Shown: in pieces, positions 8,549 through 42,879 of the stretch
How the letters are laid out: every line of letters begins with the position of its first letter
How positions within the stretch are numbered: the stretch's first letter is position 1
NCBI GenBank assembly: GCA_003602635.1
Contig: QQSJ01000014.1
Coordinates: 1-49,921 of the forward strand
Direction: 5' to 3'
DNA length: 49,921 bases
Origin: Candidatus Poseidoniales archaeon
GTDB lineage: Archaea; Thermoplasmatota; Poseidoniia; Poseidoniales; Poseidoniaceae
Program-made: the position numbers and the translations under genes
The notes under the pieces: model-generated
Databases searched by the model: none
What the model saw: only the letters and a program-made list of their open reading frames with translations
Told to the model about the DNA's origin: nothing

Positions 8549-8588
8549 CGGGGAAGGCTCTTGACGGTCCTTCTCCGCCTTGGAGCAC

Positions 8589-15964: not shown

Positions 15965-15965
15965 C

Positions 15966-16505: not shown

Positions 16506-16507
16506 GG

Positions 16508-17386
16508 ATGTCCACCTACCAAGGTCCCGTGACGGACGACCATTTCCACCTGCGTCGTGACGGCCGTTGTTTGGATGCAGCACAGGACTTCGCCCGTGCA
16601 GGAGGCACCGATTTGGTGCTCGTGCACTGCCCCGATTTTGCCTCCCCGCCCATCGATGAAGCCGGTCATCGGGCTGCCTACGCCGACACCGTGGCGATGG
16701 CCGAAGAGGTGCGCACTGCGGTTGATCTTGGCGTCCGGGTTGTGCTCGGCCCACACCCGGCGGCGTTTGCTCACCAATTCGAAGCGTGGTCCGTTGAGGG
16801 AGAAGCCGGTCGCGCACGTGCGGTTGAGGCGTACACCTCGAGCATTGACGCAGCCGTTTCATTCATCGACGAAGGACTGGCCCACGCCGTGGGCGAAGTC
16901 GGCCGTCCTCACTGGCCTGTGAGCGATGACGTCTGGGACCTGTCAAACGAATTGTTGGCGTGGACCATGCGACGTGCAGGGCGCGAGGGATTCGCGCTGC
17001 AACTTCACGTCGAGGGCGAGCAAGCCTCGACCTATCCCGAACTCGCCGAGATGGCCGACCGTGAGGGCTGCCCCCGCGACCGCATCGTGCGTCACTATGC
17101 GCCTCCAGACGTCAGTTCGTCGGCCACGCATGGCCTCATTCCCAGCGTGCTTTGCGGAAAGGGAGCGCTTCCTGTGCTGCTCGAGACGATGTCGGAGGCA
17201 CGCCAGGGGTTCATGCTCGAGACGGATCACATGGACGATCCCGCACGCCCGGGTGCCGTTTTGGGGCCCAAAACCGTGCCAAAGCGCACACGGCAACTCA
17301 GCGAAGCCGGGGTGGACGACGAGGTGCTCTACCGGGCGCACGTGGACCTCCCTGACCGCTTGTATGGACCCTCCATCAGGGCCTGA
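16508..17386 (+). CDS. TatD-family metal-dependent hydrolase
   Basis: ATG at 16508, 2 nt after the upstream stop. DDHFHL (HxH), LQLHVEGE, VRHYAP and MLETDH match the TatD metal-ligand layout. Confidence 0.75.
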   Translation: MSTYQGPVTDDHFHLRRDGRCLDAAQDFARAGGTDLVLVHCPDFASPPIDEAGHRAAYADTVAMAEEVRTAVDLGVRVVLGPHPAAFAHQFEAWSVEGEAGRARAVEAYTSSIDAAVSFIDEGLAHAVGEVGRPHWPVSDDVWDLSNELLAWTMRRAGREGFALQLHVEGEQASTYPELAEMADREGCPRDRIVRHYAPPDVSSSATHGLIPSVLCGKGALPVLLETMSEARQGFMLETDHMDDPARPGAVLGPKTVPKRTRQLSEAGVDDEVLYRAHVDLPDRLYGPSIRA

Positions 17387-17441
17387 AGGACGGCCCTTCT
17401 GGGCGTCATCTTCATGGGAGAGCCGCGTCACCCCCGGACCG

Positions 17442-18542
17442 ATGACCCGCTCTTCCCGCGCCGTTGGGACCGTTGGGCTCCTTGTGCTCTCGCTCATGTT
17501 GGCGGCGGTTCCAAGCGCCCAAGCCCAACTTGGAATTGGGGTGCAGATTTCGTGCGACGACGATCCCGAACTCAACGTTCATCCCTCTGAAAACGCCGAC
17601 GTCGACGTCACGTGCACGGTGAAGAACACCGGTCAACTCGAATCGACCATCTCGGTGGACTACGAGTGGCAAGACGACGATCCTCGCGTGGACATGTCCC
17701 TCTCCGAGGACGAGTTCACGCTGGCCGCCGGAGCCGAAGAGAACTTCCAAGCCACCTTCTCAGGCTCCCCTCGTATCGAGGCCGATCTTTCCCTTGATTT
17801 CGACATCACCGCATCCATCAGCTCTGTGATGGTGCTCCCCGTGGACCAACTGAACCAATCCGCTACCTACTCCGGTGAAGTGACGGTCCAAACCTTCGGG
17901 ATGGTCGACCTGACCTTGACCGACCGCTCCACTCGGAACCTCGAAGCCAGCGAAGAAGTCAGCATTGGGTTCACGATGGGCAACGACGGCAACGCAGAGG
18001 ACAAGATCGAGGTCAACATCGCCAACTTGGCCGAATTGGAATCCGCAGGATTCAGTTTCCCCGAGGGCAGTTTCGTTGCGGAGACCGTCATGGTCGAGGG
18101 CACTTCGGCTGAGCGCACCATCGTGTTGCGCACCCCGTCAGACGTCGCCGAGGAAGTTCGCGTCCAGGTGGTCTTTGAAGCCACCAGCACGAACGACGCG
18201 ACGGCTGATCCGATGCAATCCACGGTCACCGTGGTCGTTCAAGCAGCAGCCTCGAATGCTGCCTTGGGTGGTGGATTGGAAGAACTCAGCCAAGACCAGA
18301 TCCAGCTCTATGGTGCCATTGGAGGCGGTGTGGTCGTCTTCTTCCTGCTCATCTTTGTCGTCGGTCGCCTCATCCGCCGCTCCGGTGGCCCTGAACTTGA
18401 GGACGTCATGGAACTGGATGAACCGGCGGTGCCCACAGCCGTTGCAGCCCCGGTTGCTGCTCCAGTGGCCCAAGCGGCGCCCGTGGACGAGTTCGATGGC
18501 ATGTTTGACGACCTCGATGACTTCGATTTTGATGGTCTTTGA
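17442..18542 (+). CDS. secreted, C-terminally membrane-anchored acidic protein
   Basis: ORF 16926..18542 trimmed to the ATG at 17442. Signal peptide (VGLLVLSLMLAAVPSAQA), beta-rich acidic body, TM helix (GGGVVVFFLLIFVVG) then RLIRR, an Ala/Pro linker and an acidic end (DDLDDFDFDGL). Confidence 0.75.
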   Translation: MTRSSRAVGTVGLLVLSLMLAAVPSAQAQLGIGVQISCDDDPELNVHPSENADVDVTCTVKNTGQLESTISVDYEWQDDDPRVDMSLSEDEFTLAAGAEENFQATFSGSPRIEADLSLDFDITASISSVMVLPVDQLNQSATYSGEVTVQTFGMVDLTLTDRSTRNLEASEEVSIGFTMGNDGNAEDKIEVNIANLAELESAGFSFPEGSFVAETVMVEGTSAERTIVLRTPSDVAEEVRVQVVFEATSTNDATADPMQSTVTVVVQAAASNAALGGGLEELSQDQIQLYGAIGGGVVVFFLLIFVVGRLIRRSGGPELEDVMELDEPAVPTAVAAPVAAPVAQAAPVDEFDGMFDDLDDFDFDGL

Positions 18543-18568
18543 CGGCCCCATCTGTTCGGGTCACGTCC

Positions 18569-18578
18569 CCGCATTTTT
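18569..18578 (+). terminator. possible archaeal oligo-T terminator
   Basis: A TTTTT run within gcatttttcac, about 30 nt after the 17442..18542 stop, in the only sizeable (about 100 nt) gap before fabI. Weak. Confidence 0.25.
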
Positions 18579-18643
18579 CACTCCCTGAGAGGGGGAATGG
18601 TCAAAGGCCGGTGTGCCCGGCTACACCGATGGAGGGTGTGCGT

Positions 18644-19435
18644 ATGCTGGACCTCAAGGGAAAGACTGCGTTCGTGTTTGGTGTGGCCAGCGAGGATTCC
18701 ATCGCTTGGGCCATCTGCCAGCAACTGGCTGCCGCGGGCTGCACGCTGTACCTCGGCTATCAGAAGCGGTTCATGAGCCGGATCTTCAAACTCAAAGACC
18801 AGCTCCCTTCCATCGGAGGCTTCTATCCGCTGGACGTGGCCGAGGACGCCTCAACGAAGGAGTTCTTCGACGCCTTTGCAGCGGAGCACCCCGGCAAGAA
18901 AGCCGACATCTTGGTGCACGCCATCGGTTTTGCTCCCCGGACCTGCTTCGACCGACCCATTCTCTTCGTCGAAGACGCCGACATCAACACCGCGATGACC
19001 ATCTCTGCAAACAGCCTGCAGCGCTGTCTGAAGCACGCCTTGCCCTACCTGTCCGAAGGATCCTCGACCATCACCCTCACCTACGCGGCTTCCACCCGAT
19101 ACGTGCCGTCCTACGGCATCATGAGCATGGCCAAGGCCGCCCTCGAGTGCTGGACGCGTGAATTGGCGTGCCATCTCGGGCCCGAGGGGCACCGTGTCAA
19201 CGCCATTTCTTCAGGCCCCATTCGGACCATTGCGGCTTCGGGCATTCCTGGCTTTGACAACATCCTCAATCACGTGGCGTCCAACGCGCCACTCCGGCGA
19301 AACGTCACGCAATCGGACGTGGCGGGGACCACCTTGTGGCTGGCCAGCCCCCTTTCAGCGGGCGTGACGGGTCAAGTCATTCACGTGGATGCAGGGTATT
19401 CGATCACGATGGTGCCGGAGACCATCATGGAGTGA
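18644..19435 (+). CDS. fabI: enoyl-[acyl-carrier-protein] reductase, SDR type (FabI)
   Basis: Aligns along its whole length with E. coli FabI by eye: LKGKTAFVFGVASEDSIAWAI, VHAIGFAP, YGIMSMAKAALE (Tyr/Lys catalytic pair), EGHRVNAISSGPIRTIAASGI, VIHVDAGYSI. ATG at 18644 is preceded by GGAGG 8 nt upstream. Confidence 0.9.
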   Translation: MLDLKGKTAFVFGVASEDSIAWAICQQLAAAGCTLYLGYQKRFMSRIFKLKDQLPSIGGFYPLDVAEDASTKEFFDAFAAEHPGKKADILVHAIGFAPRTCFDRPILFVEDADINTAMTISANSLQRCLKHALPYLSEGSSTITLTYAASTRYVPSYGIMSMAKAALECWTRELACHLGPEGHRVNAISSGPIRTIAASGIPGFDNILNHVASNAPLRRNVTQSDVAGTTLWLASPLSAGVTGQVIHVDAGYSITMVPETIME

Positions 19436-19444
19436 GGTGAGAAG

Positions 19445-22400
19445 ATGACGATCACCACAGCAGACGGAAAGGAGGTCGGCGGGACCGACCAAGGCCCCTT
19501 CGAACCCATCGCCATCATCGGATGCTCAGCACTGATGCCCGACGCCGCCGACGCATCCGCTTTCTGGCAGAACATCATCGACTCGCGCGTCAGCATCCGC
19601 GATCTCCCCGAAGGCCGCTGGCCAGGGCCTATCGAGCAGTTTTGGGCCGAGGGCGCTCCGGGGCAAGTCGAAGAGAACCGCACGTACGCCAAGATCGGTG
19701 CCTTCGTGGAGGGGTTCGAATTCAACTGGCGTCGATGGCGGCAACCTCCTGGTACGCTGCCTCAAATCGACCCTTGCCAACTCTGGGCCGTTGAAGTCGC
19801 CGCGTCCGCTCTGGAGCATGCCGGTTACGGCGACGACGGACGGGAGCTTGACCGAAGCCGCGTTGGCGTGGTGTTTGCCAATGCGCTTGGCGGCGAGAAC
19901 CGCAACGAATCCAACCAGCGCGTCTGGGCAGAACGCAACCGCGCATTGGCCGTTGAAGCCGGTTTGCCGGAGGCCTCCAGCCAAGCCTTCGTCGATTCGA
20001 TGATCGAAGGCGCTCCAAAGGTGACCGAAGACACGATGCCCGGTGAATTGGCCAACGTGGTGTCCGGTCGTGTGGCCAACTTGCTCGATCTGCAGGGGCC
20101 CAACCACGCGATGGACGCCGCCTGCGCTTCTTCGCTGGCCGCCTTGCTTGACGCGTGCCGCTTGCTGCACGCACGGCAGGTTGACGCGATGATTTGCGGC
20201 GCTTCGGACCGCACCATGGATCCTGCGACCTACGCCAAATTCAGCGCGATTGGAGCCCTTTCGCCAAGCCATTCCACGCCGTTCGACGCACGTGCCAACG
20301 GCTTCGTCATGGGCGAGGGAGCCGGTGCACTGGTGCTCAAGCGCCTCAGCGACGCCGTGCGTGACGGCGACGAAGTGTTCGCCGTCATCCGCGGCATTGG
20401 TGGTTCCTCGGACGGCCGAGGAAAAGGCATCACGGCACCGTCACAACGCGGTCAAATTCAAGCCATTGCGCGGGCCTACAACCAAGCGGGCTATGCCGCT
20501 TCATCCGTCGAATTGGTCGAGGCCCACGGGACGTCGACCAAGGTCGGCGACGCCACGGAATTGTCCACCCTCGGTACCCTTTGGACGGGACTTGAAGCAG
20601 GTGACAACGTCGCCGTTGGGTCCATCAAGAGCCAGATCGGCCACCTCAAGGCCGCGGCTGGCATGGCCGGGTTGCTCAAAGTCACCATGGCCTTGCACCA
20701 TGCCACCATCCCGCCAAGCGCAGGATTTGAGACGCCAAACCCGACCGTGGATTGGTCGGACAACCCCTTCTTCGTCCCAACCGAGCCGATGGCTTGGGCT
20801 CAGCCGGACGGCCATCCTCGCCGTGCTGGTGTCAGCGCATTCGGGTTCGGTGGAACCAACTTCCACGTGGCCCTCGAAGCCTACGACCCAGAACTTCACG
20901 CGGCCATGGGGGACACGTGGGCTTCCCGTTGGGACGCCTACGTCGGAGGGTCGGCGGCACCTGCTGCAGCCTCCATCCTCGATGCTTCCGCTTCGCCTTC
21001 TCTTGATCACGCCTCGCTCAAAGCGGTCGAAGGCGGGGTCTTGCTTCTGTCTGGCGACAGCGTCGAAGCCGTGTCCGAGCTGCTTGCAGGGCGCTCCGTT
21101 GATGGTCCGACCTTCGACGAGGACCCACGAGGCCACCGTTTGTCGGCGGTCTTCTCTGAGTGGTCTTCCTCGTTCGACTCGGGTGCAGCGGTCCGTCTCG
21201 CCGTGGTGGCGACCACTTGGGCCGAGTTCGAGAAGCGGAAGGGATTGGCCGCTTCATCGCTCTCCGATCCCTCCCGCTGGGGCTTCCTTGCAGCGCAAGG
21301 CATCATGATCACCGACAAGCCTGCGATGCCTCCGCAAGCCAAAGTCGCGCACATGTATCCCGGGCAGGGCAGCCAATACGTTGGCATGACCCACGACCTC
21401 TGGAAGCGCTTCTCCGCGGTCCAGGACGTGTGGCGTCAAGCCGATGAAACGATGGTCGAGGTGCTCGACGGCGAGTCCCTCTCCTCGTTCGTGCTTCGAA
21501 GCAACCTCTCCAAAGACGAGGCCAAAGAAGCCGAAGAGAAGCTGAAGCGCACCGAATACACCCAACCCGCGATGCTCACGGCGGATTTGGCCATCGAGCG
21601 CGCCCTCAACGATCACGGTCTCAAGCCAGACATGGTCGCCGGTCATTCCCTTGGCGAATACGCGGCCCTGATGTCCGCCGGCATCATGGACATGGACAGC
21701 GCCCTTCGTGCCGCTGCCGCGCGTGGTACCGAGATGGGTTCGGTGGAAATTGACGACCAAGGCCTGATGGCTTCGGTCAGCGCCCCACTCGCTGACGTCC
21801 AACGCATCCTCGATGCGACCGACGGTTACGTGATTGCAGCCAACAAAAACTCACCAAAGATGACGGTCATCGCCGGTGAAACTGCACCCGTCAAGGCCGC
21901 CATGTCCGCCTTTGAGGCGGAAAGCATGCCTTGCACCGTCCTCCAAACGTCCCACGCCTTCCATTCGAAGATCGTCGCTCCTGCCAACGCTCCGCTGCGT
22001 GCCTTCCTCGAGGAATTGGACCTCCAATGGCCTTCGATTCCCATCACCGCCAACGTCGACGGGGCCTTCTACGCCATGGAAGGAGAGAACGCTCAGGCCG
22101 CGGTGCTGGAGAAACTCGCACCGCAGATGGCTTCCTCGGTGGAATGGACCGCCCAAATCGAAACCATGGCGGCTGCAGGCGCAGGCGCCTTCGTCGAAGT
22201 CGGGCCAAAGCGCGCCTTGACCGTCTTTGCAACGCAGATCCTCGAGGGTCAACCGCATTTGGCGGTGATGACGAACCATCCGAAGCAAGGGGGCGTCGCC
22301 AGCTTCCTCTCGGCTTTGGGGATGCTCGCCCTCGCTGGACGGGTGCCCTCCCTTCCCGGAGGGACAAGTCCTGCGTTGACGGAAGCCTTCCGTGCTGGAC

Positions 22401-25400
22401 CTGTTGAGGCGTGGAGCACGGCCCCGCTTCAGCCCACTCGCTCCTCCAAGGAGCACGAAGACCTGCGAACCCGTTCGCGGCCCCTCCCGTCCACCGGTGC
22501 CGCTCCCGCAGCGGCCCATGCCGTGGCCGCTCCTGTGACTGTGGCTGCACCTGCTGATCCGGCCGAAGCCATCGCCGCGTACGTCGGTGACCGGCTGGCT
22601 GCCGTCTGCGGTTATCCGGCTCGGTTCTGCCGTGGAGCCGTCGACCTTCGTCTTGGCCTCGGTTTGGATGATGCCAAGGTGAACGCCGTCGTGCAACGCT
22701 TGCGCAGCGAAACATCGCTCGATGCCGAAGTGGACATCGCGGCTGCACGGACGCCCGCAGAACTGGTTCGGGCCGTTCGCGCACCCCCCTCTGGCTGGCG
22801 TCCTGCCGCCCCAGCCACGCGCCGCGTCGCACCCCAGGCCTCTGCCGGAGCTCCGGTGCACGACCCCATGTCGGACCGCCGTTCGAATCCGTACGTGATC
22901 ACGGGTGTGTCCCTCGGCTTGCCCGGCGGAGAACGTGTGTTCGACGAGGACGTCTTTGAGCGTCTGATTCGGGGGGAAACCTGCATCGAAGAGGTCTCAG
23001 ACGCGTACAAGCAAGCGCTCCTCGACCGGAACATCGTCCGGCTCGTCAAAGGGCGCGACGGTTCGGTTGACATGTCAGCGGCCGAAACCTTCGGAGACAT
23101 CCCTCAGTTGGCGGGCGTCGCCCACGCCTTCGACCTCGCGGAAGAGTTCGGTGTCGATCCCAAGGCCGTTCTGGCATGGGACATCACCACACAACTCGCC
23201 GTGGCTTCAGGCTTGCTCGCGTTGCGCGATGCAGCCATCCCACTCACTCCAGAAGAGCAAGTCGGCAAGGGCGGACTCCGCTTGATTCGCGGATGGCAGG
23301 TCCCTCAGCATCAGCGTGAGCGAACCGGTGTGGTCTTCGCTTCATGCTTCCCAGGCACCACCGCTTCCTTTGAGCACGCCATCAACAATGGAGCGGACGC
23401 AGAGGGTCGGTTCGACCGTCGCTTCCTGTTCCAAGTTCTCAACATGGGTCACGCTCAATTCGCCCAACACACCGGCATCCGTGGCCCCAACTCGACCATC
23501 AACGTCGCATGCGCTTCTTCCACGGCCGCTTTCAGCATCGCAGAGGATTGGCTGGCCAACGACCGTGCAGACCGCGTGGTGATCATCTCGTCCGACAACG
23601 TGACCAGCCCAGAACTGTGGTCCTGGATCGGTGCAGGCTTCGCGGCTTCCGGGGCAGCGTCGTCCAGCAATGTCGTCGAAGAGGCGGCTTTGCCGTTTGA
23701 TCGCCGCCGCAACGGTCTGATCCTCGGAATGGGGGCCGCAGCCTTCGTCGTTGAGCGAAACGCCGAGGCGGCCGATCGTGGCGTCCAACCCTACGCTGAA
23801 CTCTTGGGAACGCGCATGGCCAACTCCGCTTTCCATGGGACCCGTCTCGACGTTGACCACGTGGCCCAAACCGTGGACGGCTTTGTCGGTCAGATGGAGG
23901 ACACATGGGGCTTGGACCGTCATGCCATGGCGCCCAACACCGTGTTCTTCTCACACGAAACCTACACGCCCGCACGCGGTGGTTCAGCCCAATCGGAGGT
24001 CAAAGCCCTTCGGACGACGTTTGGAGAAAGCACGGACAAGATCCTCATCGCGAACACGAAGGGGTTCACGGGCCACCCAATGGGCGTCGGCATCGAAGAC
24101 GCGAGCATGATTCACGGCCTTCACCATCGCCGCTTCCCCCCTATCGCCAACCACAAGGAGGTGGACCCAGAGTTGGGCAACCTCAACCTCAGCAAAGGCG
24201 GCGCCATCGAGGGCATCGAATACGGCATCCGATTTGGGGCCGGTTTCGGTTCACAAATCGCCCTTTCTTTGGTTCGACGTTGGCCGGTTGAAGGCGAGCG
24301 TGTGAACGGTCGAGCGGTCCTGGCATGGAACCGACGGCTTGCAGGAACCAACGACGTGGTGCTTCGCGTGCTCGACAACAAGCTCGTGGCCTACGTGGAC
24401 GGCGAGAACAACCTCCACGGCGGCGTCCAAGGCGATGCTTGGGGTCCAAGCGAGCCCTTCGAAGGCCTCGAAGAAGAGCCCGGAGAGGCACCGTCGCCTC
24501 CCCCAACGCCGGCACCTGCTGCGCCTGCTGCACCCGTGGCCAAGGCGCCCACCGTGGCGCCCGCAAGCGACGATGAGGTCACTGCAGCGATGATCGAAGT
24601 GGTCGTTGAGCACACCGGTTATCCTGCTGAATTCATCGAGATGGATCAGGACCTCGAAGGTGAACTGGGCATTGACACCGTCAAGCAAGCGGAAATCATG
24701 GCTTCCCTGCGCGATCGTTTCTCGCTCCCTGTTGACGAGGATTTCGTGCTCTCCGACCATCCAACCCTCAACCACATGCTGGCGTACCTCACGCGCATGC
24801 AAGGCGGTGGCCCTGCGCCATCGCAGGAAAGACCCGTCGTGGCGCCTGCTCCTTCGGTCCAAGAGCCCGTTGAGCACGCCGATGCGCCTGCGCCTGCAGC
24901 GCCCACCGAAGCACCGGCCCCGGCCCCAATGGCCGAACCCGGAGATTTGGTGGATACCGTGGTTAGCGTCGTGGTCGAACACACCGGTTATCCTGCCGAC
25001 TTCATCGAACTGGACCAAGATCTGGAAGGAGAGCTGGGCATTGACACCGTCAAACAGGCCGAGATCATGGCGGACATCCGCGCTCGTTTCTCCCTGCCCA
25101 TCGACGAGGATTTCCTCCTCTCGGACCACCCTACCCTGAACCACATGGTGGCGTACATCCAACGGATGACCGGCGGAGGAGATGCACCGGTGGCTGCACC
25201 GACGCAAGCACCCGCTGCGGCAAGCCCAGCGCCGAGCGCAGCCCCCGCGCCTGAGGCCAAACCTGCCCCTGCTGCGCCTCCTGTCACGGAGGACGACGGA
25301 ACCATCGCTGCGCGTTTGGTCGAAGTGGTCGTCAAGCACACGGGCTATCCTGAGGATTTCATCGAACTCGATCAGGACCTTGAGGGCGAACTTGGGATTG

Positions 25401-28252
25401 ACACCGTCAAGCAAGCGGAAATCATGGCTGATGTGCGGGCCATCTTTGACCTGCCCGTGGACGAGGATTTCCTGCTCTCGGATCACCCCACGCTCAACCA
25501 TTTCGTGGGCTACGTCGCCAAATTCTCCTCAGGCGGAAGCGCCGCCGCCGCGCCACCGACCCCTCAGGCATCGGCCGGCGAAGCACCCAGCACGCCCGCG
25601 CCCACTTCTTCGGCCATCTCCGAAGGTTGCCGCCGCTGGCAGGTGGAGATCGAGCCTTGCGAAGGCGATGCATCGCCACTGAGCCTCAACGGCCGGATGT
25701 TGGTCACGGAGGACGATTGGGGGCTTTCTGCCGCCGTCGCAGAACGGCTGACCGCTCAAGGCTTCGACGTGGTTCACATCGGCCTCGAACCCGGAGCAAA
25801 GTCACACCGCGTTCAGGAAGAGGGTGATCGTTTGGTGCACCGCGTGGACCCGGGCTCCTCTGAGCAGATGGACGCCTTTGTGGCGTCCCTCGGAGAGGCA
25901 CCGTTGGCTGGCCTGATTCACCTTGCTCCACTGCGCTTGGCCAGCATGGCCTGGTCCGAAGAGTCTGGACCCAGTCAGCAAGTGATCATCGCAGGACAGG
26001 CATGGTTTGGTCTCCTCAAGGCCCTCGACCACCGCTTGGGCGAGCTTGATGCTGGCGTCGTGGCTTCGGTCAGCGCCATGGACGGACGCCACGGAAACCG
26101 CGGCGATCGCTTCAACGCGCTGCAAGCCGCGGCTGCAGGGGTGACAAAATCCTACGCGCACGAACGTCCGTCGCTGCGTTGCCGCGCATACGACCTTCAC
26201 CCGGACATGCTCTTGGAGGCTGAATCCACGGCCGCCCGGTTGGTGGACGACCTCCTTGGTGTCGGCGGTGACGTCGAAATCGGTCTGGACCGTGCCGGCG
26301 AGCGTTGGACCTTGGTCTGCTTCGCTGAAGACTTGGTCGACGAACAGAAACCCCTGGTGGAGACCGATGTTTGGCTGGTTTCCGGCGGTGGCTCTGGCGT
26401 GACTGCAGCGGCCGTCATCGGGGTTGCAGAAGCCTCCAAGGACGCAGGAGCCGCGTTCCATCTTCTCGGACGGACGCCCCTCATGGAAGTCACCGAAGGT
26501 TGGCTCGAATACGACGAAGCGTCGTTGGAAGCCGAGAAGATGGCCCTCAGGGAGCGGATGATGGAAGCCTCCTCGTCTGGAAAAGTCACCATGGTTGAGT
26601 GGAACCGTGCATGGGACCGCATGATGCGCTCTCGTGACGTCCAGCAAACCATCGCCAGCATTCAGGCCACTGGAAACTTGGCTCAGTATCATGCGGTGGA
26701 CGTGACGAACACCAAGGCCTTGACCAAGATTGGAGCCAACCTTGGCCACGCCATCACCGGCGTGGTGCACGGTGCAGGTCTCGAGGAAAGCAAACTTGTG
26801 GCCGACAAAACCCACGAGGCCTTCGATCGCGTTGTGCGCGTCAAGGTCGACGGCTGGACGGCGCTCATGAGCGCCGTGCAAGCGTCGGGTGCTCCGCATC
26901 CTGCCTTTGCAGCCTGCTTTACGTCGGTCGCCGGACGCTTTGGCAACGGCGGACAAACCGATTACGCAGCAGCAAATTCGGTCTTGGACGCTGAAATGTC
27001 CCGTCTGACGGCCAGCGGCGTCTGCCGTGCCGTGGCCATCGGATGGACCGGTTGGCGGGACGTGGGCATGGCGACACGCGGTTCGATCGAAGCGGTGTTC
27101 GAAGCCGCAGGCATCGAGACCCTCCCGGTCGACGTCGGCGTGGATTTGTTTGTCGGCGAAGCCTTGTCGGGTGGGAAGCGGCGCGTGCTTGGATGCGGCA
27201 GCCTTGGTGCCATGGACACCTATGCGGCCTTCCGTGAGGCTCCGCTGAAACTGCCTCCGGGCATGGCCGGACTGATCGCTGACCCTCAGCGCTTCCCCTT
27301 CATCGACAAGGTGGTGGCCTTTGAGGAGAACGAACGCATGGCCACACAGACCACGCTTTCTACCGCGCTTCACCCCTTCTTGGTGGACCACGCCATCGAC
27401 GGCGTGCCGTACCATCCTGGTGTGATGGCGCTGGAGATGTTTGCTCAGAGCGCCTTGTTGCTCAAACCAGAGACCGCCTTGGCTGGATTCAAGGACGTCA
27501 CGTTTGGCCTTCCGGTCAAGATCATGCGGGATTCGATGACCGTCAGGGTCGAGTCGTCCGTTTCTTCCTCAGACGATGGCCAGCATGAGGTTCATTGCCG
27601 GTTGGTTTCCGACCTGATGTCTTCGAGCGGTGAAGTGTTTGGTGAGCGAGAACACCACAGCGCTGTGGTGCGTTTGGTGGACCGCGCAGAGGATCTGAGC
27701 GCCTTCTTCGCTGGAGAACTTGGCGCCATGCCCGACACTGGCCTGGCCCCTGCCCCTGGTGATCTCATGCATCATCCGTCGTTCATCTACCTCCGCTACT
27801 TCCACGGGCCTCGCTTCCAAAGCCACGGTGGCGTGCTTCGTGGTGTTCAGCAGGGCGAGCATCTCGGCGTGGACGGGTTGGCGTTGATGCGCCATCAGTT
27901 GCCTGCGAAGGACCAGTTCGCCATCGAATCCGACGGCGATGCTGTGCTGCTGGAGGCCCTCCCCATGCTCATCGAAGCAGGCTTCCAGAACGCCGGTTTG
28001 GTCGCCATGGAATCCGAGGGCTTGAGCAGCCTCCCCGTGGGCATCGAGTGGTCCACCATGCTTCGTGTTCCGGACGAGGGCGAATCGCTCCGCATGCGTT
28101 CGCTGTGCACCGGGAAGGAAGAGGGTGGCATCACCGTCCACGACGTGGTCATCTTCGGCGAGGAAGACGATCCAGTGCTGGCCCTTCGCGGTCTGCGCCT
28201 CAAGGGCATGGCTCCGGTCCCCGAGGACTTGGCCGTCTCCATTGAGCGGTGA
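19445..28252 (+). CDS. PUFA-synthase/PKS-like type I megasynthase (KS-AT-carrier-like-KS-ACPx3-KR-DH), 2935 aa
   Basis: Uninterrupted 8.8-kb ORF starting 9 nt after the fabI stop. Domain motifs are listed in the sub-features below. The carrier repeats resemble PfaA ACPs (VVEHTGYP.(E/D)FIE.DQDLEGELGID.VK). Confidence 0.95.
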   Translation: MTITTADGKEVGGTDQGPFEPIAIIGCSALMPDAADASAFWQNIIDSRVSIRDLPEGRWPGPIEQFWAEGAPGQVEENRTYAKIGAFVEGFEFNWRRWRQPPGTLPQIDPCQLWAVEVAASALEHAGYGDDGRELDRSRVGVVFANALGGENRNESNQRVWAERNRALAVEAGLPEASSQAFVDSMIEGAPKVTEDTMPGELANVVSGRVANLLDLQGPNHAMDAACASSLAALLDACRLLHARQVDAMICGASDRTMDPATYAKFSAIGALSPSHSTPFDARANGFVMGEGAGALVLKRLSDAVRDGDEVFAVIRGIGGSSDGRGKGITAPSQRGQIQAIARAYNQAGYAASSVELVEAHGTSTKVGDATELSTLGTLWTGLEAGDNVAVGSIKSQIGHLKAAAGMAGLLKVTMALHHATIPPSAGFETPNPTVDWSDNPFFVPTEPMAWAQPDGHPRRAGVSAFGFGGTNFHVALEAYDPELHAAMGDTWASRWDAYVGGSAAPAAASILDASASPSLDHASLKAVEGGVLLLSGDSVEAVSELLAGRSVDGPTFDEDPRGHRLSAVFSEWSSSFDSGAAVRLAVVATTWAEFEKRKGLAASSLSDPSRWGFLAAQGIMITDKPAMPPQAKVAHMYPGQGSQYVGMTHDLWKRFSAVQDVWRQADETMVEVLDGESLSSFVLRSNLSKDEAKEAEEKLKRTEYTQPAMLTADLAIERALNDHGLKPDMVAGHSLGEYAALMSAGIMDMDSALRAAAARGTEMGSVEIDDQGLMASVSAPLADVQRILDATDGYVIAANKNSPKMTVIAGETAPVKAAMSAFEAESMPCTVLQTSHAFHSKIVAPANAPLRAFLEELDLQWPSIPITANVDGAFYAMEGENAQAAVLEKLAPQMASSVEWTAQIETMAAAGAGAFVEVGPKRALTVFATQILEGQPHLAVMTNHPKQGGVASFLSALGMLALAGRVPSLPGGTSPALTEAFRAGPVEAWSTAPLQPTRSSKEHEDLRTRSRPLPSTGAAPAAAHAVAAPVTVAAPADPAEAIAAYVGDRLAAVCGYPARFCRGAVDLRLGLGLDDAKVNAVVQRLRSETSLDAEVDIAAARTPAELVRAVRAPPSGWRPAAPATRRVAPQASAGAPVHDPMSDRRSNPYVITGVSLGLPGGERVFDEDVFERLIRGETCIEEVSDAYKQALLDRNIVRLVKGRDGSVDMSAAETFGDIPQLAGVAHAFDLAEEFGVDPKAVLAWDITTQLAVASGLLALRDAAIPLTPEEQVGKGGLRLIRGWQVPQHQRERTGVVFASCFPGTTASFEHAINNGADAEGRFDRRFLFQVLNMGHAQFAQHTGIRGPNSTINVACASSTAAFSIAEDWLANDRADRVVIISSDNVTSPELWSWIGAGFAASGAASSSNVVEEAALPFDRRRNGLILGMGAAAFVVERNAEAADRGVQPYAELLGTRMANSAFHGTRLDVDHVAQTVDGFVGQMEDTWGLDRHAMAPNTVFFSHETYTPARGGSAQSEVKALRTTFGESTDKILIANTKGFTGHPMGVGIEDASMIHGLHHRRFPPIANHKEVDPELGNLNLSKGGAIEGIEYGIRFGAGFGSQIALSLVRRWPVEGERVNGRAVLAWNRRLAGTNDVVLRVLDNKLVAYVDGENNLHGGVQGDAWGPSEPFEGLEEEPGEAPSPPPTPAPAAPAAPVAKAPTVAPASDDEVTAAMIEVVVEHTGYPAEFIEMDQDLEGELGIDTVKQAEIMASLRDRFSLPVDEDFVLSDHPTLNHMLAYLTRMQGGGPAPSQERPVVAPAPSVQEPVEHADAPAPAAPTEAPAPAPMAEPGDLVDTVVSVVVEHTGYPADFIELDQDLEGELGIDTVKQAEIMADIRARFSLPIDEDFLLSDHPTLNHMVAYIQRMTGGGDAPVAAPTQAPAAASPAPSAAPAPEAKPAPAAPPVTEDDGTIAARLVEVVVKHTGYPEDFIELDQDLEGELGIDTVKQAEIMADVRAIFDLPVDEDFLLSDHPTLNHFVGYVAKFSSGGSAAAAPPTPQASAGEAPSTPAPTSSAISEGCRRWQVEIEPCEGDASPLSLNGRMLVTEDDWGLSAAVAERLTAQGFDVVHIGLEPGAKSHRVQEEGDRLVHRVDPGSSEQMDAFVASLGEAPLAGLIHLAPLRLASMAWSEESGPSQQVIIAGQAWFGLLKALDHRLGELDAGVVASVSAMDGRHGNRGDRFNALQAAAAGVTKSYAHERPSLRCRAYDLHPDMLLEAESTAARLVDDLLGVGGDVEIGLDRAGERWTLVCFAEDLVDEQKPLVETDVWLVSGGGSGVTAAAVIGVAEASKDAGAAFHLLGRTPLMEVTEGWLEYDEASLEAEKMALRERMMEASSSGKVTMVEWNRAWDRMMRSRDVQQTIASIQATGNLAQYHAVDVTNTKALTKIGANLGHAITGVVHGAGLEESKLVADKTHEAFDRVVRVKVDGWTALMSAVQASGAPHPAFAACFTSVAGRFGNGGQTDYAAANSVLDAEMSRLTASGVCRAVAIGWTGWRDVGMATRGSIEAVFEAAGIETLPVDVGVDLFVGEALSGGKRRVLGCGSLGAMDTYAAFREAPLKLPPGMAGLIADPQRFPFIDKVVAFEENERMATQTTLSTALHPFLVDHAIDGVPYHPGVMALEMFAQSALLLKPETALAGFKDVTFGLPVKIMRDSMTVRVESSVSSSDDGQHEVHCRLVSDLMSSSGEVFGEREHHSAVVRLVDRAEDLSAFFAGELGAMPDTGLAPAPGDLMHHPSFIYLRYFHGPRFQSHGGVLRGVQQGEHLGVDGLALMRHQLPAKDQFAIESDGDAVLLEALPMLIEAGFQNAGLVAMESEGLSSLPVGIEWSTMLRVPDEGESLRMRSLCTGKEEGGITVHDVVIFGEEDDPVLALRGLRLKGMAPVPEDLAVSIER
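19496..20885 (+). other. megasynthase domain: ketosynthase 1 (approximate bounds)
   Basis: DAACASSLAAL (Cys codon 20123..20125), EAHGTSTKVGD, KSQIGHLKAAAG, FGFGGTNFHVALE. The full Cys-His-His triad is present. Confidence 0.9.
21340..22340 (+). other. megasynthase domain: acyltransferase (malonyl-CoA:ACP transacylase-like; approximate bounds)
   Basis: YPGQGSQYVGM, GHSLGEYAAL (Ser codon 21647..21649), SHAFHS. Confidence 0.9.
22560..22780 (+). other. megasynthase domain: degenerate carrier-protein-like segment (Asp at the Ser position)
   Basis: IAAYVGDRLAAVCGYPARF...LRLGLGLDDAKVNAVVQRL has ACP helix-I/II layout. It reads GLDD (Asp codon 22670..22672) where ACPs have GxDS. Confidence 0.5.
22885..24285 (+). 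other. megasynthase domain: ketosynthase 2 (approximate bounds)
   Basis: ITGVSLGLPGG start, NVACASSTAAF (Cys codon 23510..23512), FSHETYTP (first His), NTKGFTGHPMG (second His). The triad appears retained, so this is not a classical Cys-less chain-length factor. Confidence 0.8.
24570..25520 (+). repeat. three tandem in-frame carrier-domain (ACP) repeats, about 360-nt period
   Basis: Three copies of ...VV(V/K)(E/H)HTGYP.(E/D)FIE(M/L)DQDLEGELGIDTVKQAEIMA..R..F.LP(V/I)DEDF.LSDHPTLNH..., separated by Ala/Pro linkers. The cores are also similar at DNA level (roughly four in five positions by eye). The attachment-site codon is ACC (Thr) in all three: 24677..24679, 25046..25048, 25403..25405. Confidence 0.9.
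25625..27170 (+). other. megasynthase domain: ketoreductase (structural plus catalytic subdomains; approximate bounds)
   Basis: Rossmann motif VWLVSGGGSGVTAAA from 26369. TSVAGRFGNGGQTDYAAANSVLD with the catalytic Tyr codon at 26963..26965. Confidence 0.85.
27288..28249 (+). other. megasynthase domain: PKS-type (double-hotdog) dehydratase (approximate bounds)
   Basis: LHPFLVDHAIDGVPYHPGV fits HxxxGxxxxP (His codon 27389..27391). About 320 aa run to the C-terminus. Confidence 0.8.
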
Positions 28253-29034
28253 TGCAGATGCTCAGGGTTGAGCCGGTGTGGTCCGGCTTTGAAGCACCTC
28301 TCCACCAGGTGTCCCTCGCTGCACTCCCTGAGGTGCTTCCCGACGAAGATGCTCAACTGCCACCGTTGGTGGAAGCAAGCGAATGGTCGACCTTCAAGAC
28401 CGACAAACGCAGGAAAGAGCACCTTGGCGGGCGCCTCTTGCTGGGCGCTTCCATCGAAGCATGGTGGAATGAACGCCGCTTCGTCGGGCGAACCGACGAA
28501 CTCGATGTCGTGCGAGACGAGCACCGTGCGCCGTACCTTCGCTGGCGGCCCGGCGTATGGCGCCAAGCCCCGCTTCCTGGCGTGTCAATCGGGCACAGCG
28601 AAGGACGCGCCGTGGTGGGTCTGGTCGAGGAGGGATGGAGCATTGGCGTGGACGCGGAACCGGTCGATCGCCGCATCGCAGAAGCCGCATGGGACATGTT
28701 TGCGTCAGCAGAAGAACGGTCCACGTTTGCGGGCAATCACCCTGCTGCGTTGCGGGCTTGGGTCACCAAAGAGGCGATTCAGAAAGCGTTGGGCTTGGGC
28801 ATGCACCTCAACCCTCGTCACATTGTGACGGAAGCCTCCCGTTTTGTTCACCACGGCTCAGTGGTTCATGTCAGCCACACCGAAGTGGACGGCATGTTGG
28901 TGTGCGTTGCCCTTGCGCCAGCCCGTGCACCACCGTCAACACCCGAGGATGACGTGCTTGAAGCCACACGGGCGGCGATGGAGGCCGACCCTGAATGGGG
29001 CGTGGGATGCAAGACCACACGACAGTTGGCGTGA
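28252..29034 (+). CDS. 4'-phosphopantetheinyl transferase (Sfp type)
   Basis: IGVDAEP and WVTKEAIQKALG (W/FxxKEAxxKA) motifs. The ATG at 28252 shares its A with the megasynthase TGA (TGATG), suggesting translational coupling. Alternative in-frame starts at 28249 (GTG) and 28258. Confidence 0.85.
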   Translation: MQMLRVEPVWSGFEAPLHQVSLAALPEVLPDEDAQLPPLVEASEWSTFKTDKRRKEHLGGRLLLGASIEAWWNERRFVGRTDELDVVRDEHRAPYLRWRPGVWRQAPLPGVSIGHSEGRAVVGLVEEGWSIGVDAEPVDRRIAEAAWDMFASAEERSTFAGNHPAALRAWVTKEAIQKALGLGMHLNPRHIVTEASRFVHHGSVVHVSHTEVDGMLVCVALAPARAPPSTPEDDVLEATRAAMEADPEWGVGCKTTRQLA

Positions 29035-30561: not shown

Positions 30562-30633
30562 GCGGATATGGTGAAGTGGTTATCATCTGAGGTTTCCAAC
30601 CTTATGTCGTGGGTTCGACTCCCGCTATCCGCA
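30562..30633 (+). tRNA. tRNA-Gly (anticodon UCC)
   Basis: Hand-folded cloverleaf. Acceptor GCGGATA/TATCCGC is a perfect 7 bp. D arm GTGA/TCAT. Anticodon stem TGAGG/CCTTA with loop TT-TCC-AA. 4-nt variable loop. T arm GTGGG-TTCGACT-CCCGC. Discriminator A. CCA is not encoded (followed by CCT). Confidence 0.85.
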
Positions 30634-30673
30634 CCTTCGTGCCAATCAACGGCTTTGCCTTGTGCGTGAGCCA

Positions 30674-33600
30674 TCAGGGACTGGGGGGTTGCTGCGGCAA
30701 TCCCGGGATCCCTTGAGGCGGTGGCGGCGAGGCTGACATGGGTGGTGCAGTACGGCGCCGTTCCACCAAAGCCATGGCGAGTGCTTCCCGTTCTTCCTGC
30801 CATCGTGCGCTCCGGCGTCGACCTTGGACAAGCATTCCCAACAACAGTACGATGAGCAGGACTTGGCCGAGGGCCACCTGTCCACGTTCATCATCGACCC
30901 ACCATGAGACGTCCGTCCATTCGGTTTGTGTTGGTGCGTCAACCTCCAGCAACCGGCTGTCGATGACCTCCACGCTGAGCGACACCTCGTCCATCGCGGC
31001 GTTGCTGCCGGGCTCGGTGACGGTGACGGTCAGTTGAATGGGCACGGCACGGGCCACTTCGGTCTCAAACCACAGGGAAGCATTCTCTGCTTCAGGATCG
31101 ATGACCACCGTTTGCGAACGCGACCCGCCAAAGAGGTCAGAGCCTCCGTCCCACGTGACTCGAGCGGTCACTGGGACGCTCATCGTGTGGGTCACGGTGC
31201 ATGTGAAGGCAAATTTCGGTCCCACGGCAAGGTCCACCTCGGGATTGACCAGGGCACAATCGAGCGTCGCCTCAGCCACGTTTCGAGAGGCATCTTGAGG
31301 CCAATGATCCGGAGATTCTGCCCCAATCTCGTTGTTGTCTCCGTAGCCGTCCCCGTCGCTGTCTACCTGCTGGGTGGCCAGGTCGGGGAAATCGTCCTCC
31401 ACGTCGGCCCATCCGTCGCCGTCACGGTCAGCACAGCCACGAGCGCTCGAATGAGACGACGTTCCTGCCTCGTTTGGGCAATCGTCGGACACCGTGGATC
31501 CGCTTTGATCGGCGTATCCGTCTCCGTCGCTGTCGGACCACACCCCACCGTCGACCGGCCACGGGTCGTTCAGATCGCTCTGTCCGTCTCCGTCGCTGTC
31601 TGGGCATCCAAACCGGTCCAACGTTGAGGTTCCGGCCGCACCGGGGCAGGCATCGGGTTGCTCACCTGAAGCAAGGTCGCCGTACCCGTCGTTGTCCGAG
31701 TCCCCGATTTGGGTGGGGTCGTTGGGGAACTCATCGCCTTCGTCGGAAGCTCCGTCCCCATCGGCATCAGGGCAACCAAAGCGGTCCAGAGACGAGTTTC
31801 CGGCCACCGTCGGGCACGCGTCGGCTTCCGTGCCGCTGGCGTTGTCACCGTATCCGTCACCGTCTTGGTCTGTGAATTGCGAGGAATCGTTCGGGAAGGG
31901 GTCGGCGCCATCACCGAGGGTGACTTCGCCGATGCCGTCCACGCCGGTTTGAGCCTCAGCCACGCCGTCTCCGTCGGCGTCTGGGCAACCCGTGACCGGG
32001 CTTGTGGACGTCCCAGCCAACGCAGGGCATCCATCGCTCGGATCGTCGATGCCATCACCGTCCGAGTCGGCGGTACGGGATGGGTCATTCGGGAAGGCAT
32101 CGCCGAGGTCCGACACGCCGTCGCTATCGCTGTCAGGGCAGCCGAATCGATCGACGGTGGAGGTGCCCGATTCGCCTGGGCAGGCATCAGGTTCCGGCCC
32201 CGTGGCGTTGTCACCGTATCCGTCACCGTCTTGATCGGCCCACTGCGAGGGTTGGTTGGGGAGCACGTCGATGCTGTCGTCCCAACCGTCTCCGTCGGTG
32301 TCAGGGCAACCGTAGCGGTTCGCTGCGGTGGAATTCCCTTGCACGTAGGGGCAAGCATCTGGCATGGTCCCGCCGGCGTTGTCGAAGTATCCGTCACCGT
32401 CTGTATCGACCCATTGTGTTCCGTCGTTCGGAGCTTCGTCTTCACCGTCGGACCATCCGTCGCCGTCGCCATCAGGGCAGCCCAGCGTACCGTTTTGCCA
32501 CGAGTTGCCGGCTTGCGTGGGGCAATCGTCAGCGAGCGTGCCGGTGGCGTTGTCGCCGTATCCGTCTCCGTCCTGGTCGGCCCATTGGGTCCCGTCCATC
32601 ACGAAGGCATCGGCTCCGTCGGCCACCGTCCACACGCCGTCAGGATCCGACCAACCGTCGCTGTCTCGGTCAGGGCATCCTTGTCGATCGAGGGAGGAGG
32701 TTCCCGCAGCCAGGGGGCACGCGTCATCGATGGTGTCGTCAAACCCGTCGCCATCGGTGTCCGCCCAACGCGATGCATCGCTTGGGAAGGCATCGGCGCC
32801 GTCGGTGACGGACCAACCGCTGTCCTCGTCAGAATAGCCGTCGCCGTCCCCGTCGGGGCAACCGTTGCGGTCCACGGAGGAGCTGCCGGTCACGCCTGGG
32901 CAGGCATCGCCCATGGTTCCAGAGGGATTGTCGCCGTATCCGTCACCGTCAGCGTCCACCCACTGCGTTGCATCCGTGGGCCATGCGTCGGCGCCTTGGC
33001 CAGTGGTCCAACTTGAATCTGGGTCAGAGAACCCGTCGCCGTCTGCGTCGGGGCAACCCAATCGGTCGTTGGCTGACGAACCGTACGTGGTGGGGCACCC
33101 GTCAGGTTGTGCGCCAGAGGCGTTGTCACCGTATCCGTCAAGGTCGCTGTCCACCCACTGTGATGCTTCGAAGGGGAAGGCATCGTCCACATCGGCCCAT
33201 CCATCGCCGTCGCCGTCAGGGCAACCGAGGCGGTTGGCTTCGGTTGACGTCCCGGGAACGGTTGGGCACGCATCGGGTTGGGTCCCTGTGGCGTTGTCGC
33301 CGTATCCGTCGCCGTCCTGGTCGGCCCATTGCGTGGTGTCGTTTGGGAACGCATCCGCTCCGTTGGCGACCGTGAAGCCGGTGTCAGGGTCAGAGTAGGT
33401 GTCGCTGTCAGTGTCTGGACAACCCAATCGGTCCGAGGTTGAGTCGCCAAAGAGCGTTGGGCAACCGTCTGGATCGGTGGCAGGAGCGGGGTTGTCGCCG
33501 TATCCGTCGCCGTCCGTATCCCGCCATTGGGTGTCGTCGCCAAGGAAGGCGTCGGCCCCCTCGCTGATGCTCCAAGTGCTGCCGTTGGAGGAGGAAGCAC

Positions 33601-36259: not shown

Positions 36260-36350
36260 GTGTTCTGCTTTTGCTGAACCCTCATCAAGCATTGGTCGAA
36301 CGACGCAGCAGGAACACGAGCGTTGAAAGGCCATTCGCCGACCGCAAACC

Positions 36351-41783: not shown

Positions 41784-41872
41784 GGAGAAAGCCCGACGTC
41801 CCGTCTCTTAGACACTTCGCCCTGTCAAGCAAGGGAGCGAAGGGTCTTGGCTCATGGCCTGCTCGTCGCAAC

Positions 41873-42877: not shown

Positions 42878-42879
42878 GC

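Follow-up and report, generated by a model that had tools for sequence, protein, structure and literature searches.

A predicted carrier-dependent acyl synthase operon with threonine carriers in Marine Group II archaea, an archaeal branch of the bacterial Type R family

A contig of a Candidatus Poseidoniales archaeon (QQSJ01000014.1, assembly GCA_003602635.1), of which we analysed positions 1 to 49,921 (the window), carries three co-directional genes predicted to encode an enoyl-acyl carrier protein (ACP) reductase (FabI), a 2935-residue PfaA-like megasynthase and a 4'-phosphopantetheinyl transferase (PPTase). The evidence supports the view that this operon specifies an ACP-dependent acyl-lipid or polyketide synthase, encoded by an archaeon together with its own putative enoyl reductase (ER) and carrier-activating enzyme. 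An earlier note, made from the DNA letters alone, had proposed such a synthase, and the proposal gains from the catalytic residues, the selection acting on the genes, conservation across the order and the exclusion of a chimeric contig. By architecture and homology, the megasynthase belongs to a large bacterial family, Type R, of which it forms an archaeal branch partnered by FabI, and is not a unique invention. As far as we could check, what is new is this archaeal FabI-partnered branch, the recasting of its second ketosynthase (KS2) as a competent enzyme, and carrier domains with threonine; the Type R architecture is known from bacteria. We estimate a probability of about 60% that the system is a fully reducing, iterative type I synthase resembling a fatty acid synthase (FAS), whose product would be a saturated or sparsely functionalised acyl chain.

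The three genes are tightly packed (Table 1). The open reading frames run from 18539 to 19435, 19445 to 28252 and 28249 to 29034, all on the forward strand. The ATG of fabI is at 18644, with GGAGGGTG just before it, and its TGA (19433-19435) is separated by a spacer of 9 nucleotides (nt; ggtgagaag) from the megasynthase ATG at 19445. At the second junction, cggTGATGcag, the megasynthase stop (28250-28252) and the PPTase ATG (28252) overlap by 1 nt. The layout described in the earlier note, which gave 9 nt for the gap and 1 nt for the TGATG overlap, is thus borne out. Pfam and NCBIfam scans likewise upheld the domain order read there, namely ketosynthase (KS), acyltransferase (AT), KS, three carriers, ketoreductase (KR) and dehydratase (DH), and direct reading finds every catalytic residue present in KS1, the malonyl-type acyltransferase (MAT), KS2, KR, DH and FabI. 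KS1 matches the Pfam families ketoacyl-synt, Ketoacyl-synt_C and KAsynt_C_assoc, and its best PDB matches are the KS-AT didomains of type I polyketide synthases (PKSs), 7ZMA and CurL. The MAT scores 118.9 bits with Acyl_transf_1 (Pfam) and 199 bits with TIGR00128 (fabD), and the KR 85-89 bits with Pfam KR at residues 2395-2539. The DH matches PKS_DH_N (residues 2618-2716, 35.8-38.4 bits) and, weakly, PS-DH (15.7 bits); its His and ExxxQ are conserved throughout the family alignment. Public annotation of these megasynthase genes is generic ("beta-ketoacyl synthase N-terminal-like" or "acyltransferase domain-containing").

KS2 is marked by the motifs FxSHETYTPARGGS and NTKGFTGHPMG. It matches Pfam ketoacyl-synt (44.8 bits) and aligns with FabF in the PDB (3e-23) with the catalytic residues in register; Cys1356, His1504 and His1544 are invariant in an alignment of 24 diverse family members. 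A role as chain-length factor (CLF) is ruled out, as the Cys-His-His-Lys set is kept both here and family-wide. Because the active-site Cys and the other catalytic residues are retained, KS2 is better read as a catalytically competent ketosynthase, and by their residues both KS1 and KS2 are predicted to be competent. Tandem Repeats Finder detected no DNA-level repeat over the adjoining stretch of carriers, and a collapse during assembly need therefore not be feared there.

The two smaller genes fit a supporting role. FabI matches adh_short_C2 (Pfam, 237 bits), contains the Tyr157-x6-Lys164 pair and aligns end to end (1e-57) with Thermus thermophilus FabI (1ULU), an enzyme of type II FAS with which it shares the short-chain dehydrogenase/reductase (SDR) fold. 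It differs from bacterial type II FabI in partnering a type I megasynthase, in lying outside any fab gene set and in its scores: the 12 best NCBIfam matches are all FabI models and all fall under their equivalog cut-offs (227 versus 391). FabI adjoins the megasynthase upstream in every Poseidoniales locus with flanking sequence, as well as in an Elusimicrobiota locus (L082), where the three genes likewise follow one another as fabI-megasynthase-PPTase, and we propose that it acts in trans as the enoyl reductase of the megasynthase. The PPTase matches Pfam ACPS (36.8 bits), its homologues carry 4PPT_N and ACPS, and a sequence search of the PDB returned no match. An AlphaFold2 model built with 32 homologues (pLDDT 90.4) retrieved Sfp (4MRT), human AASDHPPT and mycobacterial PptT in Foldseek at probability 1.0 (TM 0.5-0.65). 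The motifs GxD134xE136 and W170xxK173E174AxxK178 consist of residues invariant among the homologues and, together with the two-domain pseudo-dimer fold, place the protein among Sfp-type (group II) enzymes, for which GxDxE and WxxKExxxK are diagnostic. Nothing unusual in these catalytic motifs would mark a specialisation for threonine.

All three carrier domains read LGIDTVKQAEIM (LGIDTVK), with threonine at the position of the phosphopantetheine-bearing serine. The canonical serine (GxDS) is absent, and Thr1745, Thr1868 and Thr1987 stand in its place. The domains match PF00550 (95 bits over the three copies) and align to solved ACPs, and a carrier query against the PDB aligned the threonine with the phosphopantetheinylated serine of PigH, S. 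coelicolor ACP and AcpM. The 120 closest homologues contain 377 carrier motifs, 376 of which read GIDTVK; in an unbiased set of family representatives, threonine matches outnumber serine matches by 386 to 25, and the threonine is nearly invariant in the alignment of 24 diverse members. Serine variants occur rarely within threonine clades (P0188, of the MGIIb branch, and P0216), and the consensus of the family alignment holds no second conserved serine in the carrier domain. With a PPTase always linked or fused and with strong purifying selection, Thr1745, Thr1868 and Thr1987 are most simply read as the phosphopantetheine attachment sites. The three tandem PfaA-type carriers of the earlier note are thus three and in tandem; strictly PfaA-type they are not, since threonine and not serine stands at the attachment position; the PfaA motif is LGIDSIK. 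No description of threonine phosphopantetheinylation was found in the accessible literature, and carriers of this kind appear undescribed as far as that literature could be checked. Some family members (P0233, P0248, P0203, P0207, P0213, P0214, P0223-P0226) have additional LGIDTVK carriers ahead of KS2 or are 3400-4000 residues long, and the Type R-like family therefore has several architectural sub-types.

The surroundings of the operon are archaeal. Pfam confirmed the downstream genes for PCNA, TFS, Nop5 and fibrillarin that had been taken as archaeal markers, and a TATA-binding protein (TBP) gene is now added upstream, where it also lies in loci L001 and L002. The GC fraction stays at 0.60-0.65 throughout the window. 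Tetranucleotide correlations are 0.95-0.96 between operon and flanks and 0.98 between the flanks, versus 0.76-0.85 with bacterial loci (L039, L068, L082) and 0.20 with a low-GC Anaerolineaceae locus (L057). The megasynthase gave more than 7900 matches, of which the best 120 are all full-length at 65-96% identity; full-length homologues in this range number hundreds, those with names being Ca. Poseidoniales, Poseidoniaceae or Poseidonia, on contigs of up to 2.04 Mb. L001 (2.04 Mb contig), L002, 36 species-representative genomes (L003-L038) and L083 (3.0 Mb contig) all preserve the order fabI-megasynthase-PPTase, and this set includes Thalassarchaeaceae, or Marine Group IIb (MGIIb; L033-L036), with megasynthases 54-57% identical to that of the window. 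A block upstream is conserved as well, comprising a protein of ~1950 residues (1946 in the window), a 264-residue protein, TBP and TatD. Operon and upstream genes recur in more than 35 Poseidoniales species of both MGIIa and MGIIb, which answers the call of the earlier note for synteny in other archaeal genomes, and because the same order is found in both groups the operon should predate their split. With an approximate dN/dS of ~0.055 relative to a 91%-identical homologue (0.03-0.08 per domain; dS, at ~1.4, is near saturation), the operon is under purifying selection. Judged by synteny and composition, it is authentic and vertically inherited in Ca. Poseidoniales, the window genome belonging to Poseidoniaceae/MGIIa.

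The published system closest to this locus is the Type R cluster (Shulse & Allen 2011, PLoS One 6:e20146, PMC3098273), in which a pfaA homologue of the order KS-MAT-CLF-ACP(3-6)-KR is followed by a PPTase gene and whose product was unknown there. Type R was described from Koribacter, Solibacter, Elusimicrobium and Roseiflexus, with no archaea mentioned, and in Koribacter an acetyl-CoA carboxylase gene lies between the pfaA and pfaE homologues (PMC3098273). The window locus resembles it in having a single pfaA homologue ordered KS-MAT-second KS-carriers-KR, a PPTase gene next downstream and neither pfaB nor pfaC: in the window and the Poseidoniales loci, no such partner was seen in the 10 kb to either side. 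Its relatives among bacteria belong to the phyla in which Type R was described (Acidobacteriota, with Bryobacteraceae among them, Elusimicrobiota and Chloroflexia). The window locus differs in that the second KS, published as "CLF", keeps Cys-His-His-Lys here, in the C-terminal DH and the threonine carriers, which were not described there, and in the pairing of the Marine Group II (MGII) version with FabI and not with an acyl-CoA-dehydrogenase-like (ACAD-like) or PfaD-like protein. The earlier note had allowed that the architecture might already be characterised in this lineage; our literature searches showed no such case for archaea, and in bacteria it is catalogued as Type R.

This family is large. 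An exhaustive search with the KS2 domain (E<1e-30) yielded 612 clusters at 50% identity that combine KS2 with LGIDTVK carriers, most of them proteins of 2800-4000 residues with KS2 at about position 1200-1700. A GTDB scan of one genome per species with the signatures LGIDTVKQ and FxSHETYTP confirmed at least 575 species loci. Beyond Poseidoniales, carriers of the locus include Acidobacteriota (many), Chloroflexia/Anaerolineae and Myxococcota/Deltaproteobacteria, and further Gemmatimonadales, Rhodothermales, Calditrichota, Elusimicrobiota, Verrucomicrobiia and Actinomycetota. The nearest non-archaeal relatives are 40-47% identical (best bacterial, 47%) and come from Type R phyla, the named Type R reference strains not being among the 80 loci compared. 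A Polyangiaceae-like protein (P0189) has an identical architecture, and in the nearest homologues from delta-proteobacteria and Myxococcota the N-terminal extensions gave no Pfam match. A Heimdallarchaeota metagenome-assembled genome (MAG; GCA_014730365.1) encodes a further member on contig WJIK01000017.1 (locus L084, 1-8605; P0201 = MBD3189419.1), ordered KS-MAT-KS2-three threonine carriers-KR-DH with the PPTase fused at the C-terminus; the contig also encodes Pcc1 and an archaeal-type ribosomal protein S15 and looks truly archaeal. A neighbour-joining tree, built from distances in the KS2 domain only and lacking support values, shows the Poseidoniales sequences as monophyletic and nested among bacteria, with the Heimdallarchaeota sequence outside their clade. 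The operon is best explained as a gain from bacteria that preceded the divergence of MGIIa and MGIIb, and since the Heimdallarchaeota synthase does not group with Poseidoniales, the tree suggests a separate transfer for it.

The bacterial neighbourhoods bear on the function of the system. In about 30 of 44 bacterial loci an ACAD-like gene stands immediately upstream of the megasynthase gene, in five Chloroflexi loci a PfaD-like NMO reductase gene stands just downstream, in P0212 an NMO domain is fused N-terminally, and in all Poseidoniales and Elusimicrobiota L082 the upstream gene is fabI. Because the slot is filled by unrelated reductase families, the system probably needs an enoyl reductase. 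The ACAD-like gene encodes ~560-600 residues and is found beside the megasynthase gene in many Acidobacteriota, Myxococcota and others (L068 4843-6519; L047, L050, L059, L063-L078). Many of these loci also encode a eukaryote-like acetyl-CoA carboxylase in a single polypeptide (BC-BCCP-ACC_central-CT, ~1750-1880 residues; L068 15468-21119), followed by the PPTase. In ~22 of the loci with an ACAD-like gene, this carboxylase gene sits between those for the megasynthase and the PPTase, a linkage that points to de novo fatty-acid synthesis.

In the mechanism we propose, the Sfp-type PPTase would load phosphopantetheine on Thr1745, Thr1868 and Thr1987, the MAT, malonyl-specific by its motifs, would load malonyl units, and the PKS-type KS1 and FabF-type KS2 would prime and elongate the chain, probably sharing the work by chain length like KS-A and KS-C of polyunsaturated fatty acid (PUFA) synthases. 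The KR would then reduce, the PKS-type DH dehydrate and the separate FabI reduce the trans-2-enoyl intermediate. Because KR, PKS-type DH and ER occur together with no FabA-type isomerase, each cycle would be fully reducing, and the product would most likely be a fatty acyl chain of medium to long length, saturated or with few functional groups, which may be passed on to lipid-building acyltransferases encoded elsewhere. The earlier note called the system self-contained, which fits the ER and PPTase but not malonyl-CoA supply and chain release, neither of which is encoded in the locus; its observation that the adjacent genes include neither a thioesterase nor an acyltransferase nor a PfaD/FabK-type ER agrees with our scans and tblastn searches. 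A 287-residue 4HBT hot-dog protein, encoded 10 kb upstream on the opposite strand, is the nearest candidate for a chain-release enzyme.

Several points weigh against a fully reducing fatty acyl synthase. The operon holds no thioesterase or acyltransferase gene and the window no acetyl-CoA carboxylase gene. The carriers are without the canonical serine; the S36T variant of E. coli ACP is reportedly not modified by AcpS. In ten bacterial loci no recognisable ER lies within the flanks, and the ACAD-like neighbour of other bacteria could be a desaturase, not a reductase. The KS2 tree behind the proposed origin is, as said, one of distances in a single domain. Finally, environmental lipid work provides no tie between MGII and fatty-acid lipids, for which only genomic suggestions were found (PMC6962369).

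Two alternatives would deny the locus a synthase function in an archaeon at all. An assembly or binning artefact, with a bacterial PKS contig fused to archaeal DNA, could be entertained since the Type R-like family is overwhelmingly bacterial, but it has virtually no chance of being correct: archaeal markers lie on both sides (at 2 kb and 10 kb), GC and tetranucleotide usage are uniform, and identical junctions recur in more than 35 independent assemblies, including long-read contigs of 1.5-3.0 Mb. A chimeric contig, the reservation of the earlier note, was rejected on these flanking markers, the continuous composition and the recurrent synteny. It is also very improbable that the carriers are dead, with a threonine that cannot be pantetheinylated and a locus reduced to a non-functional relic or serving some purpose other than synthesis. 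While the solved ACPs that the carrier query retrieved always have serine here (as five alignments show), the threonine is kept across nearly the whole family and many phyla, occasional serine variants arise inside the same clades with no alternative conserved serine, the catalytic residues are all invariant, the PPTase is linked or fused, and dN/dS is ~0.05.

The remaining alternatives concern the product. The pfaABCDE marine PUFA synthases, reportedly described by Metz et al. 2001, share with the window locus the order KS-MAT-tandem carriers-KR-DH in PfaA, an Sfp-type, PfaE-like PPTase and an ER acting in trans, and TIGR02813 (omega_3_PfaA) is the best NCBIfam model for the megasynthase. Its score of 865.6 bits is nevertheless under the cut-off of 1010.1, with a good match over residues 21-941 only. 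PfaB, PfaC and PfaD are missing within 10 kb in every Poseidoniales locus: neither the window nor the sequence flanking related loci encodes a PfaC (KS-CLF with two FabA-type DH/isomerase domains), and tblastn with two NMO-type queries found no PfaD/NMO-type ER in the window or the MGII loci. The extra FabF-like KS2 between MAT and carriers and the use of an SDR-type FabI, not an NMO/FabK ER, are further differences; FabI would erase double bonds, a saturated product is expected, and because a FabA-type dehydratase/isomerase is missing the product should not be a PUFA. A fragment of a canonical synthase for eicosapentaenoic or docosahexaenoic acid (EPA/DHA) is therefore hardly credible and was ruled out by the TIGR02813 score and the missing partners, and of the label "PUFA-synthase/PKS-like" in the earlier note the PfaA likeness stands and the PUFA synthase does not. 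Archaea are not otherwise known to have ACP-dependent FAS, which speaks for a supply of short acyl-carrier such as octanoyl-carrier for lipoate, by analogy with mitochondrial type II FAS. MGII are aerobic heterotrophs (PMC6336850), for which a need for lipoylated enzymes is an assumption. Such a role is nonetheless most unlikely, as 2935 residues with three carriers and two KS domains are heavy machinery for a cofactor precursor and lipB, lipM and lipA are absent from the window. The bacterial hosts of the family, moreover, already have type II FAS. A possible, if doubtful, alternative is that the product is not bulk membrane fatty acid but a specialised "secondary" lipid or partly reduced polyketide, for example a very-long-chain hydroxy, keto or diol lipid, a hydrocarbon precursor or a protective envelope lipid. 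Characterised PfaA-like relatives make heterocyst glycolipids and the alkylresorcinols of Azotobacter cysts, specialised lipid synthases with high flux typically combine tandem carriers with two KS domains, and no release enzyme or glycerolipid acyltransferase is linked. Type R was filed with secondary-lipid synthases, with products that may vary by host (PMC3098273), and MGII encode a full archaeal ether-lipid pathway (PMC6461757) and may need no fatty-acid membranes. On the other hand, the operon is order-wide in a housekeeping-type neighbourhood and not in a variable island, its bacterial relatives link acetyl-CoA carboxylase and an ER candidate, and no gene for tailoring (glycosyltransferase, type III PKS, reductase domain) adjoins it. 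We therefore keep the fully reducing, FAS-like synthase as our preferred reading.

Two further systems invite comparison. Enediyne polyketide synthases (PKSE; KS-AT-ACP-KR-DH-PPTase) are also iterative, type I and PfaA-related, and the Heimdallarchaeota P0201 likewise has a fused C-terminal PPTase. Unlike the window locus, PKSEs have a single carrier and need an adjacent hot-dog thioesterase, and they are not known to have a second KS or an ER partner. The proposed ACP-independent archaeal route to fatty acids (Lombard et al. 2012; Dibrova et al. 2014, both cited in PMC7852524) addresses the same question of archaeal fatty acids with CoA thioesters, thiolase-type enzymes and no carrier protein, whereas the window operon would need a carrier and a PPTase and is of probable bacterial origin. 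Two large comparative MGII studies (PMC6461757, PMC6336850) discuss only fatty-acid degradation and ether lipids. We found no report of an archaeal or MGII PfaA-like megasynthase, ACP or PPTase in full text, a scope outside which lie Villanueva et al. 2017 (putative MGII fatty-acid pathway) and Dibrova et al. 2014.

Table 1 Coordinates of the operon, its domains and neighbouring features in the window
Feature	Position	Strand	Details
fabI leader/promoter region	18570-18643	+	MGIIa box, GGTGT/ACACC inverted repeat, Shine-Dalgarno-like GGAGGGTG
fabI	18644-19435	+	263 aa; SDR-type enoyl-ACP reductase
Type R PfaA-like megasynthase	19445-28252	+	2935 aa; KS1-MAT-KS2-carrier x3-KR-DH
KS1, PKS-type ketosynthase	19502-20896	+	aa 20-484; Cys227, His361, His400
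MAT, malonyl-type acyltransferase	21353-22312	+	aa 637-956; GHS735LGE, Arg760, H837AFH
Degenerate carrier-like stretch, MAT-KS2 linker	22577-22789	+	aa ~1045-1115; weak evidence
KS2, FabF-like second ketosynthase	23087-24589	+	aa ~1215-1715; Cys1356, His1504, Lys1539, His1544
Carrier domain 1	24563-24838	+	Pfam PP-binding; Thr1745 (ACC at 24677)
Carrier domain 2	24932-25207	+	Pfam PP-binding; Thr1868 (ACC at 25046)
Carrier domain 3	25289-25564	+	Pfam PP-binding; Thr1987 (ACC at 25403)
KR, ketoreductase	26384-27061	+	GGGSGVT from aa 2314; Lys2467, Ser2494, Tyr2507 (YAAAN)
DH, PKS-type double-hotdog dehydratase	27296-28249	+	aa 2618-2935; H2649xxxGxxxxP, E2844xxxQ
Sfp-type (two-domain) PPTase	28252-29034	+	260 aa
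4HBT hot-dog protein	8039-8902	-	287 aa
Giant gene, syntenic with operon	9322-15162	+	1946 aa
TATA-binding protein (TBP)	15777-16505	+	Pfam TBP 27.5 bits, two repeats; 2 kb upstream of operon
TatD-like ORF	16343-17386	+	
ORF after TatD-like ORF	16926-18542	+	
tRNA-Gly(TCC)	30562-30635	+	ARAGORN, Rfam
Subtilase	30674-36400	-	1908 aa; S8, PPC domain
PCNA	39740-40480	+	Pfam PCNA_N, PCNA_C; downstream, ~10 kb from operon
TFS/RpoM-like zinc-ribbon transcription factor	41430-41783	-	Zn_ribbon_TFIIS 52.8 bits (Pfam)
Nop5 (Nop)	41690-42877		downstream archaeal marker
Fibrillarin	42682-43593		downstream archaeal marker

Some further features of the locus and its neighbourhood deserve mention. The linker between MAT and KS2 contains a stretch, CGYP...DLRLGLGLDDAKVNAV (LGLGLDDAKV), that by eye resembles a degenerate carrier with Asp1076 at the attachment position; it has no Pfam match, and the motif is confined to the closest relatives. 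In the fabI leader, the box GGnAAYAGTCAAAGG is conserved across MGIIa (in an alignment including the equivalents in L001-L038) and is followed by GGTGT...ACACC...GGTGT-type repeats, which could form alternative hairpins overlapping the Shine-Dalgarno-like GGAGGTG. A hairpin drawn by hand is 80% paired; its covariation is no higher than in shuffles, the RNAalifold prediction for the leader is empty and Rfam gives no match. Because RNAalifold and covariation lend no support, we make no claim for a regulatory RNA. The sole RNA gene that ARAGORN and Rfam detected in the window is a tRNA-Gly(TCC). Two giant genes flank the operon. The first, whose 1946-residue product lacks any Pfam match, keeps its synteny with the operon across Poseidoniales; the second encodes a 1908-residue subtilase. 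The TatD-like frame and the next frame overlap by 460 nt in different frames; in relatives this region holds two genes (295 and 382 residues, L002) or one fusion of 680 residues (L001), and the 382-residue part, missing in MGIIb, has only a weak Pfam match to DUF7154. On the 2.04-Mb MGIIa contig (L001), a gene for a CarS-like CDP-archaeol synthase (25207-25860, reverse strand) lies ~6 kb downstream of the operon, which brings ether-lipid genes and the bacterial-type synthase close together there.

MGII are among the most abundant planktonic archaea, are uncultured, and have debated membrane lipids. MGII-dominated waters have been described without the expected intact glycerol dialkyl glycerol tetraethers (GDGTs; PMC6962369), and MGII genomes encode a glycerol-3-phosphate (G3P) dehydrogenase and no glycerol-1-phosphate (G1P) dehydrogenase (PMC6461757). 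The conserved carrier-dependent synthase, its reductase and its PPTase offer, in three genes, a concrete candidate for fatty-acid production in archaea, and the possibility of heterologous expression would turn the "mixed membrane" debate into an experiment. A tentative and rather unlikely further step joins two ideas: that carriers of the whole Type R family are pantetheinylated on threonine by a co-evolved Sfp-type PPTase, and that the Poseidoniales synthase is the missing de novo acyl source which, with G3P dehydrogenase and PlsC-like acyltransferases, would give ester-linked or mixed "bacterial-type" membrane lipids. If this were true, abundant archaea would be a natural exception to the lipid divide. 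Poseidoniales and a Heimdallarchaeota MAG make at least two exceptions to the textbook view that ACP, holo-ACP synthase and type I FAS/PKS are missing from archaea. More broadly, threonine replaces the supposedly invariant carrier serine in at least 575 prokaryotic species and, if modified, would matter for PKS and FAS enzymology, for PPTase specificity and for the rules of genome mining.

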